Assembly: GCA_044892505.1 (NCBI GenBank)
Contig: CM097882.1
Span: 405,790,001 to 405,854,000, forward strand
Source: Schmidtea nova
Taxonomy: Eukaryota
Reading direction: 5' to 3'
Length of the DNA stretch: 64,000 bases
Of the stretch, positions 19,238 through 64,000 are shown one piece after another (the first letter of the stretch is position 1; the number at the start of each line of letters is the position of its first letter). The position numbers were made by a program, and so were the translations under genes. The notes beneath the pieces are model-generated. The model saw nothing but the letters and a program-made list of their open reading frames with translations, searched no databases and was not told the DNA's origin.

Positions 19238-19436
19238 TTAAAGTTTTGTCAGTTTATTAATTTTAGTTTGATAAAATACATTTAGCTCAATGCATGGGTA
19301 ATTAATTATCAGAAGTTTAATTTTAACACAACGACAATTCATATCTGTCCTGTTAAATAAGCATTGGTTATACTCCGATAAACTAATTGCAGTCAGACAA
19401 AGTTAAAAGATTTTTAGTGTTAAATTTCTATATACG

Positions 19437-20151
19437 CTCTAGTATAGGTCTCCCAAAATATTTATTAAATATTTAGTAAATATTTAGTATATATAAATAT
19501 TTAGTATAGGTCTNNNNNNNNNNNNNNNNNNNNNNNNNNNNNNNNNNNNNNNNNNNNNNNNNNNNNNNNNNNNNNNNNNNNNNNNNNNNNNNNNNNNNNN
19601 NNNNNNNNNNNNNNNNNNNNNNNNNNNNNNNNNNNNNNNNNNNNNNAATAATATTATTTAAATAATAATAATAATTTAAATAATAATTTAAATAATAATT
19701 TAAAATAATAATTTAAAATTTAATAATAATTTAAAATTAATAATTAATAATTTAATAANNNNNNNNNNNNNNNNNNNNNNNNNNNNNNNNNNNNNNNNNN
19801 NNNNNNNNNNNNNNNNNNNNNNNNNNNNNNNNNNNNNNNNNNNNNNNNNNNNNNNNNNNNNNNNNNNNNNNNNNNNNNNNNNNNNNNNNNNNNNNNNNNN
19901 NNNNNNNNNNNNNNNNNNNNNNNNNNNNNNNNNNNNNNNNNNNNNNNNNNNNNNNNNNNNNNNNNNNNNNNNNNNNNNNNNNNNNNNNNNNNNNNNNNNN
20001 NNNNNNNNNNNNNNNNNNNNNNNNNNNNNNNNNNNNNNNNNNNNNNNNNNNNNNNNNNNNNNNNNNNNNNNNATAAATATTTAGTATATATAAATATTTA
20101 GTAAATATTTAGTAAATATTTAATTGATTTTTTGGGAGACCTATACTAGAG
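19437..20151. mobile_element. Foldback/MITE-like element with inverted termini around AT-rich satellite and N gaps
   Basis: CTCTAGTATAGGTCTCCCAAAA at the left, TTTTGGGAGACCTATACTAGAG at the right; internal TAAATATTTA units. Confidence 0.6.
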
Positions 20152-21081
20152 TGTCGCCGAAATTTTACAAGTCGGACGATCTTAGTAAAAAATATTCGTA
20201 AAATTTTCCCTAGTCGTAAATATTCAAGTTTATTAAATATTCAAACTATTAACACCATAATAATTAAATGGGTAAAGTAAATTTGAATCAAAAAACTAAA
20301 ATGAATTCTATTAATATCTCGTGAAACTAATAAAAATTATTTTACATGTTGAAAAAACTCAACGGTGAATTCTTAAATATCATAATTCGTGTTCGTCTAA
20401 TAACTTTTAATATACAAAAAGTGTTATTTTGTAATTTCCTACACTTTCACCATTTAAGTCATTAATACGAGACTTTCATCATGATCTTTTAAAAAGTTGT
20501 AAGTTGCCTAAGTGATACGAAGAATCCTTTTTACAATTCGCTATTATAATTCCAATATAATTTAATACGCAGTCTTTTGTATTTTCATTAATTATAAAAA
20601 ATAAAGATTACAGTAAAAAATAAAAAAATATAGAATTAATATCTTTCAAAACATTGAATAAATGTAATAATATGAATAATATTATTAGAAATTAATAATC
20701 ACCTAATTTTTATGCATACACTAATATTACAAATAATAAATAATAATAAATTTAACCTGTGTTCAATTAAAATTTCAAATTAATTTTAATTTTGAAATCT
20801 AAAATATGCGCTTAAAATCTCAATTTTAACAAATGGTATTAAGTAAAATTGTAATATGAAACTATTTCTTTATTTGATCTGAAATGTATCAAAAAATTTA
20901 ACAAATAAATAGTAGCAACATTATATATAAAATTAAGTTAATTTCTAATTAACAGTAAATCAGGTTGGGTATATTTTGACAAGGTATGATTGAAAATAAG
21001 CGTAAGTGAATGAAACTTAAGAGGTGGATGCAATGAGGAATATTATTGTCAACGAAGTTTACCTGTTAATTTATTCTTAGT

Positions 21082-24662: not shown

Positions 24663-24783
24663 AGTTAAATCAAACTCGGTTTTAAAAGACTGAACTTCCT
24701 TCATAGATTTATTTAATTAAAATTTTATAAAAAGTGCCAAAATACTCAATTATTAAAACACCAGTTAATTTAAATATCCAACT
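24663..24783 (-). repeat. 3' LTR (121 bp)
   Basis: Direct repeat of 29167-29288, preceded on the minus strand by the PPT. Confidence 0.95.
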
Positions 24784-36468: not shown

Positions 36469-38123
36469 ATGCAATCAGATACAAATCCTTCTCGAACAAT
36501 TAATTATGTGGGTATGATCAATAAATACACTTTAAACATCTACAAAACCCTACAGAATAAAATATGCACCGATGGAAATCCAGTCACCATCAGAAGTTTC
36601 CCAAATCAAGTGTGCATTACCAATGAAATGAAAGCGGAAATAGAAGAAAGAGAATAACATATTATCAAATTTAACGAGACTCGACGAACAAAACTAAAAG
36701 ATTTATTCGGAACCTTTGAGAAATACCCTAATGTCGATAAAGCGGTAAGTGAAGGAAAAAGGGTACCACACAGAATATTATTCCACGTGAAAAAGACCGA
36801 AGTATCAGTTTGCCAACAGAAAATACCAATAATCACAACAAGCAATTATTCAATAATCAGAAAAACAATCAGAAATAAAAGAAGCATGTCAGACGATTTC
36901 AATCACCTTACAATTTAAATGAAAAACCTACCATGTACCGTAGCAATCGAGGTACTCTTTATCCTTTTAATACCAAATCCATTTATTGAATTGCCGTCAA
37001 TCTCTTCAAAGATTCAATACGGTCAGAGCTGGTTAGAGGAAAAAGTCTATTTCACGCATAACGAACTATCTCCAGTAGAAAAGTACCGACTAATTATATT
37101 CCTAGATGCAAAATTTGCAGTCGATAAAAACGACAACATGCGACCAGTGGAAATATGCATAAGAAACTACAAAGGTGCGGTATTATACAACAAAAGGATA
37201 ACTCCAAAAGCAAAGATAAAAATCTTTTGCACATAAAAAACGATGATCACTAAAGAAAATATCATTGGAAACGAAGATGAGTACCAGGCCCTAGTGGATA
37301 TCTGAAAACGGTTATCTGGAAAAATAATCATAAGATTCGACATGATAGATAAATTTAAAATGTTAAGCCTTGGTCTGGACAACATCGCAGGAATGAGAGA
37401 AATGGCCAGAGATAAATTTATGTGTTCAATTGTCAAAAATGTATTAATGAAATTAAGCTATCTAACTTAGATTATAAAGAGATCAAATACCATAAAAAAT
37501 GGTACAAAGACAAGAGGCTTAACGAAGCATTACTAGAAAGTGAACCATTCTCTGCCAGAAAAACGACAACAATATTAAAAGTAATATATGGAATAGTAGA
37601 GGACAAATGGGAACCAATAATAAAATGGAATTCAGCAGCTTCAACACCGATTCTAAATAATACACGAATAACAGGTGACATCGAAATGGAAAAAGATACA
37701 CATCAAATGCAAAACAAAAAATCATTCTTGGAAGAGTTAGAAGAAAGCAAAGACGAAAGTATAATCATGAATCAACAGTCCGACATGGAAGAGACAATCC
37801 AAAATAATAGTGACGACGAGTAAATGATCACAAAAGAGGAAACACCACCAGAATGGCAACCAATGGTTAAAAAGGAACCGCAAATAGTGCAAAGATATAA
37901 ATAAGGAAAGAAAATATGCGATTTAGATTCGGACGACAAATATTTATCCCTCGAAGAAGACGAACAAAAAGAGCACGAAAATGAAATGGAGAATGCAAAT
38001 ATCGAGATAAGATCGGAAGACGAGCTAGGATCTGAACCAGATGTAGAAATGGATATAGAAGAGGAAGAGGAGCCTAGTTTCATAATAGGTGCTGATCAGA
38101 AGGAGATAACCGAAAAGCAATAA
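36469..38123 (+). pseudogene. Decayed ORF of about 550 codons with an ISG20/REX4-like DEDDh exonuclease fold and an acidic tail
   Basis: IIFLDAKF..RPVEICIRNYKGAVLYNKRITP..T(stop)KTMIT..LSGKIIIRFDMIDKFKML..MREMA..FSARKTTTILKVIYGIVEDKWE is colinear with REX4/ISG20L2 ([64 protein letters not shown]). Confidence 0.7.
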
Positions 38124-38420
38124 TGTACTCACTTCGGGAGATGAATTGAGGAGGATGATACCCTAAATCTAGCAATTAAGAAAAAGTTTAGAAAGGCAGT
38201 GATAAAATTAAAGATAAAGAAATTGAGATGGTTCTGAGCGAGAAAGGTAATGCGGACATTACCTTGACGGTTCTGGGAGGAATATTGGATGATCAGGGGA
38301 AGCCCATTCAGACATTCGTCCTGAATAAGTATTATAGAACGGGGCCTAACAGTTATAGAGTAAATATCTATGCGGAAGTTTAACCTGGGGACTCCCACAA
38401 CAGTAATTAATCTGTGCTTC

Positions 38421-39408
38421 TGTTAGGGATGGACCTTATGTCTTAACATAATCCTATAAAAAGAATAAATAATTAAATAAATGTAGATATAAATAGTAAT
38501 TATTAATTGTCATAAATAAGTATAAATATATAAATAGTAATTATTAATAAGTATAAATATATAAATAGTAATTATTAATAAGTATAAATATTATAAATAT
38601 ATAAATAGTGATTATTGAATGTTGTGGGTGAATGAAGTGTGAGTTTGGTAGTTGTGAGTTGTTTTCAAAAAAAATCAATTTTATTTGAGAGGGATCAGTT
38701 GCTGAGAGACCAGCTGTTGTGTGGCAGGAGAAAGATCAATTTTATTTAAGAGGAGTTAATTGCTGAAAGACCAGCTGTGAGATTAATCGTAAGATTGTTC
38801 AGTAGCTGCAGCTGTCGAAACCAGGACAATATTTAAGGAACGGAAAGGAATACCAGAATAAGTAAAGGCAGATCATTAGAAAAATTTTACGAAAGATTGT
38901 CAGAACAAATCAACTGAAAGAAGTGAAGTTACCGAATTAATTAAAAACAACAGAAAGACTATTCTCAAGCTTTTAAAGCATTTGGAAGATCCTTTACTAA
39001 CAAGTATTGTTGATTTTATTAATCAGTTAAATCAACTCTGGATTTTGTATTAGACAAATCCGTTTGTTGTTAAAATTAAATATTATAAAATCACCGTACG
39101 TCAATCGTCGGACAGATTGTACTTATCTGGGTAGCCCCAAAATCACTTTCTGACTTACCCCTCTGTTATTTTTAAACGGTGGGATCAATCAGTACCACCG
39201 GTCTCTTGATTGACCATAACTTCTGCGGTATTTAATACCATTATTTGTAAACCTTTTTTTAAATTTCTGTTCACATAATTATACAAAATAAAAGTATTTT
39301 TGAAGAGACTTTGTTTATTCGTTTATTCGATTGGAACACTTCCTTAATTAATTAATTATATTATTTGGAGTCAATTTTGTGTTAAGACCTTTATTTTTAT
39401 CCCCAACA
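38421..39408. mobile_element. Solo LTR (988 bp), TG...CA
   Basis: Imperfect inverted termini TGTT(A/G)GGGAT..GTCTTAACA; flanks CTTC/CTTT (4-bp TSD, one mismatch); 32-bp internal tandem repeats at 38490-38600. Confidence 0.6.
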
Positions 39409-39447
39409 CTTTTGTTTAATAAATATTTATAAATATTTGATTTATAT

Positions 39448-40456
39448 TGTATAGGTCTTAAAACTTCAAATGATCTCTTGTATATACATCAAACAATCCT
39501 CAATACATAAAATAATCCTCTCAATCAGATCAGCTCATCAAGATCCGTCCAAAAATCAATTCAAATCAGATCAACTCATCAAGACCCGTGCAAAAGACAT
39601 TCATTCTATATCTCAAATCTCTGTGTTGATAAACAATAATGTATATATTTGAAATAATCTTCATTTTATGAATTAACGGATTTTTTACTCTATATCATGA
39701 AGTTATATTTTATTATGTTATGTTATTATATTTGTGTTGCATATTATTCTTCATTACAATGTAATAATAAAAATATCAAAAATGAAAACATTTAAATAAA
39801 AAAATTGAACAGTTAATTATTAGGAAAAAGAATACATTAGTTAACTAAATAAAAACTAAATCCACTATTTAAAGGAAAATGAATATATTAGTTAAATAGA
39901 TAAAAAAGAGTAAATCCATTAATTAAATAAATAAATATTCCTTCTAAGTGTCTAAAGAAACAAAAAAAATCAGAACATGAGCCCAAAAATCATTTTAACT
40001 TTAGCGAAAAAAAGAAAAATTCCTTAGTTCTCAAGTCAATCTTGTGAACTAATTAAAACCCAGATCAGATTAAAATTAACAATATCTACAAAGCATTCAC
40101 AAGTATCATATAACACACACCTATTAAAGAAAACAAAATCAAGAGAATAAACAATATATATTTTTGAAAACTTAGTCATTGTGTGATTGGAATGACTCCA
40201 ATCTTGTGTAAAAATTTGGAAGTAAAAATTGGANNNNNNNNNNNNNNNNNNNNNNNNNNNNNNNNNNNNNNNNNNNNNNNNNNNNNNNNNNNNNNNNNNN
40301 NNNNNNNNNNNNNNNNNNNNNNNNNNNNNNNNNNNNNNNNNNNNNNNNNNNNNNNNNNNNNNNNNNNNNNNNNNNNNNNNNNNNNNTACTCTATTTATAT
40401 AAGAAACACCCCCAAGAGGTTGGGATTTCAAATAGCAAATATTTAAGACCTCAACA
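39448..40456. mobile_element. Solo LTR (about 1 kb, contains an N gap), TG...CA
   Basis: TGTATAGGTCTTAAA ... TTTAAGACCTCAACA with a perfect 4-bp TSD ATAT. Confidence 0.7.
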
Positions 40457-41439: not shown

Positions 41440-42563
<1,124 letters not shown>

Positions 42564-50100: not shown

Positions 50101-53100
50101 TTCAGTAGTAATTTCATGCTGCCAGAAAGATTTTTGTTTTTTCTCAATGAAATAATAATTTATTCATGAAGAGGTTGAATTAAAAAAAATCATTTATTTA
50201 TCGCTTCAATTAATTTATTGACTGTAATCATTGTCAATCTGAGCAGTCTTTTAATGAAATAATTCACTTCATTAACTGGTTCATAAATCTGATAAAATCT
50301 GCTAGTAGTTGTACATTTGATAACTCAATTCCAGTTGTCAAATCGAGTGTCATTATGATAGACATTATTTACCGGTGTCATTATGATTACACAATAGATT
50401 TGTAATTTATCAATCAATATTTACAGTGTCTCTGTAACTGCCAGCCGAGAATTTCTAGCTATAATTATTCAACACGCGTTTATCGGTCGATTTTAATATG
50501 GAAATTTATTTTAGCCTTTTTGAAATTTAAATTAGCCTTTTCTATGAATCTTTTTTCAAAAAATAACTCTTATAAAAACTTGCAATTTATCATAGGAAAG
50601 TAATATACAATAAACCGCTCGCAAGTACTGCTCCTTGGTAAGAGATGTAGATAATTATTTTTAGGTTATATGGCAGTTGGCCAAAATATGGTGCACAACC
50701 CACATGCGACTCTTGTGTTTTTCTATGGCTATTTGTAAATTAAAGATCTATAAAAATGAAATCATGATAATGTCTATTTTTACTATAAAAAATAAATAAC
50801 ACTAAATAATTATATATATTTTTAATAAAAGCCTTTTTGTTTTTTACTTAAAATTTTATTAATATTTGCTATATAATTCCAGTTCGAAAATTTTTTACGA
50901 ATATTTTTGATTTTTTTTTAAAAACTGCATATATTTTACGTAATATGCCGTTCTGTGTGTAACGCTATATAGTATTTTTAATTAAAAATTTTTTTTGATT
51001 CGCAAGTCTTCTTAAATTCGGAATTAAAATTTTAATGAAAAATAAAAGATATGATATATTTTACTTCTGTCATTTAAGACGGGACATTAGCTAGTAATAA
51101 TAAATCAATTATAATTAATTTACATATATTATTATTATCAATAATTCCCATAATGACTATGGATCAAAATTTCAATAAAAAAGTACACAATATTTCGGCA
51201 CAGCCTTTATCAAGTGTGTATTTTTTATAAAGGCTGTGTCGAAATATTGTGTACTTTTTTAAAGAAATTTTGATCTATAGTCATTATGGGAATTATTGAT
51301 AATAATAATAAAAAAAGATCAAAGGTGAAAAAATATAATTTACATATAAACAAATAAAGTTATGGCACTTTAATTTTTAGAAGTTGTCTTGTAGCTTTTA
51401 TACAAATGTTCTTGACCAATACATTGACCATACATTTTGATTATATAGACGATCAAATGCATGTAAAGTTGCAAGAATTTGTTCAATTATTACAAATAAA
51501 AATATTTTTGAATTGAATTCAACGTAAATAAAATTTTCTTCAAAGCTTGCCAAGAGGCTAATAAAAGTCCAGTAAATTAAAAAAAATATTCGGAAAAAGA
51601 TTAAATGCTGAAGTTACTGGAAGTTTATTTTACCTGCATTATTTTCAAGATCTTATTGAGAAATTTTCCGATTTACTGTAAATTTCAAATTTTAATACGA
51701 TCTTTTTAACGAAAATGGTATGTGATCAATTTACCAAATAAATGTCATTTATACAGTAATTTGCTCTATAAATTTAATAGAAAAAACAAACTGCCATAAC
51801 TATTCTGAATATGAGAAACGTTCGGAGATTGTATTCAAGGTTTTCTCGATAATATTATTACAATTCATGAGACACTACTTTCACTTTATGTTCTGCAGCT
51901 TAAAAAGGAATCAAAAGAGTGGAACTGCCTAGAGAGGTCTGTTTTTATGAAGATAATGTCATGAACAAATCACCGAAAGACGGTCATGTTTACTGTAAAT
52001 AGTGTTGGGGTTAGTATTTCTAAATAATTAATTCAAAAAAATAGAAAACTTGAACGTGTTGAATTTTTTTAAAAATTTCGCATAAAAAAGAGAATGCCCC
52101 CCAGGGGCTTGCTCGATTTCAATTGGTTATGACTCTTCGATTACTTTTTTTCATTTGTTGTGGAGTGTACATAATTTCCTATTGATGTGGGGCTCTATTA
52201 CTTGCACGATAACGCTACCATTCACACAAGAGCAGTTTCAATGGACACAACTGAGAGTTGTGGATATAACGTGCTTCCCCATCATTCCTACATTTGGCTC
52301 CATTGGACTTCTAATATTCTAATCACATCAAGACATGCTCGTGATGTCATCATTTTGCCACAAAAGACGATTTGAAAGATTCACAGACGTATTTTATGGG
52401 CGAAAAGCCTCAGAATTTCTTCAAAATCGCCTTCCAAAGCCTGATTACACACTAGAAGAAATGAAAATGGAAATTATTTTGAGAAATAAACCAAACATGA
52501 TTTGCTTATTGAATATATGAAATATATTTGCGATCATTTATTTATTTCTACAAGTCTCACTGCTTATTGGGCGCACCACGTACAACTCAAACTGAAATCT
52601 TTTTGAGCTCAAGTTTGTGCTTCAAAGATTTTGCATCCATTTCATTCCAATAGCAGCATATATTGCAAAACATTAGATTAGAAAAAGTCCGTGGTTGAAA
52701 TCTAACCGACCCGTGAAAATGACCAACAGGTAGTTTAAGGTTGATAAACACTGGTTTAGTATTTGGTGCAGGTCAGTGAATGAAATTAATAATATTATTA
52801 CCGGTCCGCGTAAGAAAAGTTAAATATTGTCCGGTTGAAAAACATTGATAAAATTAATTAAAATTTCTGAAATAGAAAAGAAAAGGTGAAAATTAAAAAT
52901 GTTAAAGATATAAAATTCTTGAAATAACAAAATTATCATTACGACCGGGAATTTAAAACTAACTACGCGCTGAATTTCACGATCACAAAAAGTGTAAATT
53001 AATCTATAAAGAGAATTTATGAAATTGTGCTAGACAGAAACAATATCATTAGATTGAGTTCGATAGAATTTGTGAAAATACTGTGCTAAATTTGTAAAAA

Positions 53101-62358: not shown

Positions 62359-64000
62359 CACCTATCCCCCGATTTACACGGTACTTTTTTTTGCACGTTT
62401 TCGCTTTTACACGGTTTCGAAAATTATAATTTTTTTTATTTCACTCTTATCAATACATATTTATAATAATAATATGCATATGTATATACATATTTATTTA
62501 AAAATAAAAATATAAGCATAAACAGGTAATTGCCCATTTAAGTATTCGTGTTTTAACAAGTTATTATTGAAATTATTTTTTCAATTTCTGCGCATTACGT
62601 TCATTTGTTTTAAGTACGCGATAAGTAATACAAGTATAATTCCTTTGTCCAGTTTGATTGATACAACAGTAGATTTGTGTAATGTAATATTATTTTGAGT
62701 TTGATTACACAATTTTCGAGAATCATCATAACGGTAAGTATCCTATTAAGTCTTAATAGGATACTTACCGTTATGATGATTCTCGAAAATTGTGTAATCA
62801 AACTCAAAATAATATTACATTACACAAATCTACTGTTGTATCAATCAAACTGGACAAAGGAATTATACTTGAATTACTTATCGCGTACTTAAAACAAATG
62901 AACGTAATGCGCAGAAATTGAAAAAATAATTTCAATAATAACTTGTTAAAACACGAATAATTAAAATAATTTTATTACTTAATAATTAAGTAATAAAATT
63001 ATTTTAATTATTACATACATATGTGATTTTAAAGGTCTTAATGTCAAAAGAAATTCCGAAAAAACAATTAAAAGAAAAGTTATATCGTTGGAAACAAAAA
63101 TAAAAATATTAGATAGACTTTGCCATGGAGAAGGTTCATCAGCAGTTAGCAAATTATATGGTATGAATGAAGGTACTATTAGGTCAATAAAAAAATGAAA
63201 GCAATATTAGAAAGAGTGTATCAGCTGGAGTTTCTACCAATAAGCAAATCTCTTCATATGTCAGAGATGTTGGAATTGTTAAGATGGAGAAAGCATTAAT
63301 GATATGGATTGAAGATCAAACACAGAAAGACTACCTATTGATACTAGTGCAATTAAATATAAAGCTTTGAAAATTTTATCAAAAATAAAAGAACAACCAT
63401 TAACATCTGACAACCAAAAACCTGATTTTGCAGCAAGCCATGGCTAGTTTGAAAGATTTAAGACTTGACATTGTTTGCATAATCTTAAAATAAAAGGTGA
63501 ATTGGCATCTGGTGATAAAATTGCCGCAAAAGCGTATCCAGCCAAGCTTTCTGAAATTATTTAGGCTAACTCCTATTACCCAGATCAAGTTTTTAATGCG
63601 GGCGAGACGGGTTTATATTGGAAAAAATGTCAAGTTGTACATTTTTGGCAAAATCTCAAAAAACAGCTGGTGGACAAAAAGCAGCAAAAGATCGTGTAAC
63701 CTTATTCTGTAGTAATGCATCAGGTGATAGAATAATGAAACCTTTGGTTATAAATAAAGCGTTACCACCACGTGCATTTAAAGAAGTAAATGTGTCCACA
63801 CTTCCAGTACATTGGATGCCCAATAAAAAGGCATGGGTTACCACGTCCATTTTTAGCGAATGGTTCCAGAAGTGTTTTGTACCTGAAGCAAAAAAATATT
63901 TAACAGAAAAAGGACTGCCTTTTAAAGTCTTTCTGCTGCTGGACAATGCGCCCGGCCATCCAAAAAATTTAGAACATAAAAATGTACAGATTGCTTATTT
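62359..64000 (+). mobile_element. TIGD1/Tigger1-like transposon, frameshifted, runs off the window
   Basis: TA|CACCTATCCCCCGATTTACACGG left end; KRKVISLETKIKILDRL HTH; QVFNAGETGLYWKK; KDRVTLFCSNASG..KPLVI; NKKAWVT..F.EWF..FVP; LLLDNAPGHP. Confidence 0.88.
62537..62965. repeat. 429-bp near-perfect palindrome (214-bp arms, 1-nt loop at 62751)
   Basis: The arms are reverse complements with two mismatches; centre CCTATTAAG-T-CTTAATAGG. Confidence 0.97.

Follow-up and report, generated by a model that had tools for sequence, protein, structure and literature searches.

A retroelement of the planarian Schmidtea nova encodes, in its second open reading frame (ORF2), a domain that is predicted to adopt the fold of ISG20/REX4-type exonucleases, in which four of the five catalytic residues have been replaced and which evolves under purifying selection. 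A retained fold, lost catalytic residues and purifying selection together mark a DEDD-derived pseudonuclease, and all three are found here; we consider it very probable that the domain is a selected pseudonuclease. As far as its sequence allows a function to be proposed, this conserved accessory domain may well work as a non-cleaving RNA-binding module. The copy from which the analysis started lies in a stretch of 64,000 nucleotides (the window), within an old, 5'-truncated relic of a Burro-like, env-carrying Ty3/gypsy LTR element.

In the window, ORF2 (36469..38377; all features of the relic are on the forward strand) is decayed, with 10 stops in 639 aligned codons and several frameshifts, and corresponds to a protein of about 650 amino acids in open-frame sisters. 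The ISG20/ISG20L2-fold, DEDDh-derived pseudo-exonuclease domain, placed at 37081..37620 by profile and model matches, is itself broken by in-frame stops at 37234 and 37303 and by a frameshift near 37440-37447. Its five catalytic positions remain readable: Exo I (37105..37113) keeps Asp (37105) and has Lys for Glu (37111), the acidic position of Exo II (37351..37353) is Lys (37351) and the H-x4-D of Exo III (37548..37565) has become F-x4-T (Phe at 37548, Thr at 37563), so that the DEDDh positions read D-K-K-F-T; a Tyr of Exo III stands at 37587. Translation in frame 36400 gives IIFLDAKF, NYKGAVLY and GKIIIRFDMIDKFKML, and past the frameshift EPFSARKTTTILKVIY and then VEDKWE. The initial annotation had read four of the five catalytic residues as replaced and the scaffold as keeping its spacing, and both readings stand: D-K-K-F-T also occurs in open-frame copies, and the spacing of Exo I-III and the scaffold residues are as in ISG20/ISG20L2. 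Its statement that three of the four changes need at least two nucleotide substitutions holds in part; a change from Glu to Lys takes one base, and because Exo II has Glu rather than Asp in 25 of 41 intact relatives, only His to Phe and Asp to Thr surely need two. Although the window copy is a relic, most of the differences that separate its domain from that of an open-frame copy fall at synonymous sites (pN/pS 0.24), and the whole ORF2 shares 73% amino-acid identity with an open-frame sister (pN/pS 0.28). Farther downstream, an acidic low-complexity region of ORF2 (37640..38120, limits approximate) is under weaker constraint, with a dN/dS of 0.26-0.84 between subfamilies.

The domain of a single open-frame sister matched ISG20L2/ISG20 weakly (E about 1e-3) with Exo I unaligned, and a profile of 52 relatives matched ISG20L2 (7yw5) at E 2.8e-34, ISG20 at E 2.4e-21 and SDN1 at E 3.6e-18. 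The profile alignment brings Exo I, Exo II and Exo III into register, and aligning the domain directly with sister ORF2s of this genome that keep the motif supports that register. Pfam RNase_T matches 24 of the 52 relatives, and a Pfam scan of ORF2 from the D-K-K-F-T clade gave no match. When residues 1-392 of a sister copy with a natural open frame were modelled (pLDDT 88, pTM 0.88), the best structural matches were ISG20 (1wlj, Z 18.5, rmsd 2.3 over 160 residues) and ISG20L2 (Z 18.2), with rmsd 2.2-2.3 for the two and the next match at Z 14.7; the input alignment of the model was rich in motif-keeping rows, which may bias the shape toward ISG20. The model places the D/K pair on the first strand, the second Lys on the Exo II helix and the Thr on the last helix. 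Profile and model thus predict a DnaQ-like, ISG20/REX4-type fold with Exo I-III in register, and the five catalytic residues of the DEDDh class, D-E-D-H-D, are absent from the window copy and from its clade.

Copies elsewhere in the genome were collected by a DNA search (177 candidates, 40 scored) and a protein search (2050 candidates, 150 scored). Fifty copies, the window included, were read at the catalytic sites: 44 carry D-K-K-F-T and one carries N-K-K-F-T, an open-frame copy with Asn for the kept Asp, while the script left Exo I unread in the other five, four of which align as D-I-K and the fifth of which is broken there. Across the domain, 22 of the 29 nearest sisters are free of stops, four have one stop and three are frameshifted, and within sister copies the two LTRs show 0 differences over 1064 bases in one pair and 3 over 1215 in another. 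The family divides into five subfamilies whose domains share 59-77% amino-acid identity, with pS of 0.69-0.83 and dS from 1.9 to saturated; dN between them is 0.15-0.31 and dN/dS, where computable, about 0.05-0.14. Intact-motif domains show similar constraint, with synonymous sites saturated. The kept Asp, both Lys, the Phe and the Thr are each written with two codons across the subfamilies, so what is conserved at these five positions is the residues and not the DNA. D-K-K-F-T recurs in two library proteins at 48-52% identity, and since 60 of 196 columns are invariant in the seven D-K-K-F-T rows, all four replaced sites would be invariant by chance with a probability of about 0.009. The initial annotation had held that the loss predates the decay and that the ancestral protein was a selected pseudonuclease, and had proposed to read the active-site columns and dN/dS in genomic copies; the sister copies, the purifying selection and the synonymous codon variation at the replaced sites bear out the former claim and support the latter. 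Sisters that keep D-E-D-H-D, which it named as evidence to the contrary, do not occur in the D-K-K-F-T clade, and it is distant sister families that keep the motif.

The wider ORF2 family contains both intact and dead forms. A library search returned 71 relatives, to which 13 rows from the same genome were added; 83 were aligned and 69 could be read at all five sites. All five residues are present in 41 of the 69 and at most one in 26, and two are intermediate, one of which has an end that looks broken and was excluded from the trees. Seven sister ORF2 rows of the same genome carry D-E-E-H-D in the same slot after the integrase: a fetched copy of each of these seven families has an integrase just upstream, and their reverse transcriptase (RT), where present, is 47-56% identical to that of the D-K-K-F-T clade. 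The library proteins come without genomic context, so their origin in such elements is an assumption. In an unrooted tree the seven D-K-K-F-T rows group as a single clade, and they still do so when the catalytic columns are removed (98/98); without those columns at least two changes between intact and dead are needed (2-3 in bootstraps), which argues for few, deep losses followed by long survival. A first tree, with all intact rows on one side, was rejected since it depended on the catalytic columns. For an outgroup, a Pfam search of the genome returned only what we take to be an ERI1-like host candidate, too distant to align, and a homologue search found no named cellular REX4; the tree is unrooted for these reasons, and the direction from intact to dead rests on solved cellular relatives. 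At the Exo I Glu position, Lys or Arg occupies 17 of 27 dead rows, which are related and not independent; the 20 dead rows outside the clade show many different residues at the five sites, so the lysines are no general rule of dead forms. A second dead ORF2 type in this genome, D-K-N-Y-N (locus L095:8316-9998), sits behind long tandem arrays, and no pol was found within 8.8 kb upstream of it. Three intact-motif ORF2 copies (L061-L063) recur at a spacing of 15.85 kb, a tandem array of whole elements.

The nuclease-like domain follows an N-terminal domain (approximately 36496..36980 in the window) for which a sister model and an alignment of 57 relatives predict a double-stranded beta-helix of the cupin or 2OG-oxygenase-like kind. 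In the two-domain model its residues 9-170 match prolyl-4-hydroxylase 2jij at Z 11.2 and ALKBH proteins at Z 9.4-9.7; folded alone and without an alignment it reached a pLDDT of 30, and an ESM Atlas search with it gave no usable match. The HxD...H iron triad is absent, there being a single conserved His column among the 57 rows, and Y, P-N, H and E are conserved in 82-93% of these rows, dead and intact alike. Its dN/dS is 0.08-0.21. ORF2 as a whole is an exchangeable, mobile cassette: in one subfamily (L119-L126, eight of eight fetched copies) the integrase DNA is 99% identical to that of the reference subfamily (L031/L032) and the RT 91-92%, against 67-73% for ORF2, and the drop falls just past the ORF1 stop; two other subfamilies show 91-95% against 64-74% for ORF2. 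A near-identical integrase beside an ORF2 of 67-73% identity implies that ORF2 lineages long predate the backbones on which they now sit, and RT at 91-92% beside integrase at 99% that the backbones are themselves mosaics.

The remains of the host element were delimited by comparison with sister copies. In the window the element begins within the C-terminal integrase part of ORF1 (34611..35304), at 79-80% DNA identity to three intact sisters, and the parts upstream of the sister integrase tail had no match in the window. The end of ORF1 (35603..35986, from the list of open reading frames) includes a hydrophobic segment and has its stop at 35984-35986, the sister match resuming at 35819; ORF2 follows and runs into the 3' LTR. 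A polypurine tract (38275..38282), positioned as in sister copies, precedes this LTR (38283..40456), whose start overlaps the end of ORF2 and of which two ends remain, the middle having been replaced by another abundant repeat (38421..39461, perhaps reaching about 40390; 888 candidates in the genome, 40 scored) that is 90-91% identical to three other places. That repeat starts with TG and is perhaps a solo LTR of another family. The LTR pairs of three sister copies are 99.75-100% identical, and the two sisters in which both ends could be seen are 13.6 and 14.0 kb long and flanked by target duplications of 4 bp. Sister ORF1 is one polyprotein with a Gag zinc knuckle, a Bcl-2-like region (PF00452, E 2.4e-5, under the curated cut-off), a fusion glycoprotein of Monjiviricetes type (PF24664, E 5e-88) in frame between the Bcl-2-like region and the protease, and then protease, RT, RNase H and integrase; a Pfam scan of its 2877 aa did not find BIR, MATH or ankyrin. 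In many young copies a frame that overlaps the end of ORF1 (window 35946-36335; L006:450-1020) continues without a stop through a variable tandem repeat and into ORF2. ORF1 and ORF2 are possibly linked by frameshifting or read-through. Four sequencing runs of one study, of unrecorded kind, covered the contigs evenly and offered no informative joint.

Elsewhere, the window holds an intron-free open frame at 41440-42441, which we take to be GAPDH-like, and a 328-aa open frame at 32865-33851 on the reverse strand with no confident Pfam match, beside which lies a 272-nt tandem duplication (33900-34443, 97% identical). Gag-like frames with a zinc knuckle at 27895-29205 (reverse strand) belong to another, smaller LTR element, and a 104-nt repeat at 24680 and 29185 accompanies them. 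Long near-perfect inverted repeats occupy 62537-62965, 19434-20154 and 51127-51310.

We propose that an ancestral element acquired an exonuclease of the REX4/ISG20 type, placed behind a cupin-like domain, and that catalysis would have been retained in some lineages and abandoned altogether in others. In the D-K-K-F-T clade, two metal-binding acids may have given way to lysines and the metal site to a basic pocket, which could bind the 3' end or the backbone of an RNA and leave it uncut; a likely use would be to shield element RNA from 3' trimming by the host or to tie up host small RNAs, and the divergent, swapped ORF2 variants may reflect conflict with the host. Lys or Arg at the Exo I Glu position of many dead rows would fit such a basic pocket, and the shift in charge is weak: the median net charge of the domain is +5 against +1 in intact relatives, with overlapping ranges. 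As for the Phe and Thr, they might do no more than occupy the pocket. According to the accessible text of PMC6123492, change to any single residue among the five abolished the activity of SDN1; Exuperantia (Exu) and PML-1's PXL domain are, in the available parts of PMC13659232 and PMC5597691, DEDD-derived pseudonucleases that bind RNA; and EXD1 and Maelstrom are cited, in the accessible portion of PMC5408684, as dead DEDD domains in piRNA biogenesis.

Other explanations of the conserved dead domain deserve consideration. It is somewhat unlikely that the domain binds proteins instead of RNA, as a decoy that mimics a host REX4/ISG20-type nuclease or as a partner of intact-motif ORF2. The Bcl-2-like region in ORF1 puts host mimicry within the repertoire of the element, ORF2 variants are old and exchanged between backbones, and intact and dead forms coexist in one genome; yet lysines that are invariant exactly where metal ligands used to be are easier to reconcile with a phosphate-binding pocket than with a random surface. 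Quite unlikely is a passive role, in which selection would target either the N-terminal, cupin-like domain or the C-terminal part, the nuclease fold serving only as a scaffold and the replaced residues stabilising an empty site. Equal constraint on the N-terminal domain, with H, E, N and Y conserved in 82-88% of the 57 relatives, dead and intact, and the free variation of other dead lineages at the five sites would suit this, but the dead domain is under the same constraint as its N-terminal neighbour and roughly the same as intact-motif domains with comparable synonymous saturation, and two lysines at buried sites are unlikely as a purely structural choice. That the kept Asp and the new lysines cleave by a metal-poor route is very unlikely: all seven rows of the clade retain the first Asp, and the lysines show no variation, but three metal ligands and the general base His have been lost, Asn replaces the Asp in one open-frame copy, and PXL, with one kept Asp, is inactive (accessible text of PMC13659232). 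Neutral decay after insertion or mis-alignment, for which the stops and frameshifts of the window copy and the weak single-sequence ISG20 match might speak, is an extremely improbable source of the pattern and is ruled out by the same residues in young open-frame sisters and five deep subfamilies, the codon data, the 50-copy count, the profile match at E 2.8e-34 and the model match at Z 18.5.

Returning to RNA binding without cleavage as the preferred reading, we offer one extension, which we regard as fairly unlikely: a two-state anti-silencing cassette in which intact ORF2 would destroy host small RNAs 3'-end first, as SDN1 does with miRNAs, and disarmed ORF2 would capture them in its lysine-lined pocket, ancient variants being kept and swapped through conflict with the host piRNA system. 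If true, a retrotransposon would encode a suppressor of silencing that occurs naturally in an active and in a dead form, the two existing alongside each other. More generally, ORF2 offers a candidate answer to how env-carrying elements of very high abundance withstand silencing by host small RNAs, and the all-or-none split of this large family provides a natural matched pair for asking what an accessory gene does. The analysis also annotates a cupin-like plus ISG20-like reading frame that Pfam misses entirely in the D-K-K-F-T clade.

Among known systems, ISG20/ISG20L2 (1wlj, 7yw5) and SDN1 (5z9x) are the best profile and structure matches and share the fold, the spacing of Exo I-III and the scaffold residues; unlike them, the domain described here has four of five catalytic residues replaced, stands behind a cupin-like domain and is encoded by a retroelement. 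Exuperantia, PXL, EXD1 and Maelstrom likewise have a nuclease fold without catalytic residues (accessible portions of PMC13659232, PMC5597691 and PMC5408684), but they are host genes, and binding by the ORF2 domain is putative; Exu is a more distant structural match to the model (Z 10.8), and the SAM-like part carried by Exu and PXL is not apparent in the modelled residues 1-392 of about 650. The Burro and GYPSM1 elements and the GAG-ENV-POL errantiviruses of flatworms share with our element a Gag zinc knuckle, a Bcl-2-like region and an in-frame mononegavirus-like fusion glycoprotein before PR-RT-RH-IN (available text of PMC6431247 and PMC13524379), the same domain order of ORF1 being described for planarian Burro elements in PMC6431247 and for the flatworm errantiviruses in PMC13524379. 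However, Burro exceeds 30 kb, against about 14 kb here, and Burro-1 to -4 have an ORF1 of about 4900 aa with BIR, MATH and ankyrin domains that sister copies here lack in 2877 aa. An exonuclease-like ORF is absent from the description of Burro in the accessible parts of PMC6431247 and PMC13524379, and the literature available to us (including portions of these two and of PMC8532177, PMC11410931, PMC13238120 and PMC6338049) contains no account of an exonuclease ORF, whether of ISG20 type or dead, in Burro-like elements; one may be mentioned in the original description of Burro, in Repbase entries or in supplements. A further parallel is ORF3 of the bdelloid elements Juno and Vesta, an accessory 3'-5' exonuclease ORF that also follows pol and shows a DEED variant at Exo II (PMC5408684, accessible text). 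According to the same text, ORF3 is RNase D-like and of the DEDDy type, with its invariant residues intact and no significant departure from neutrality; the ORF2 domain, in contrast, is of the DEDDh/ISG20 type, with H-x4-D in its intact sisters. While the accessory nucleases of LTR retrotransposons described so far, in the sources accessible to us, have intact residues and no clear selection, here it is the dead form that is clearly under purifying selection.
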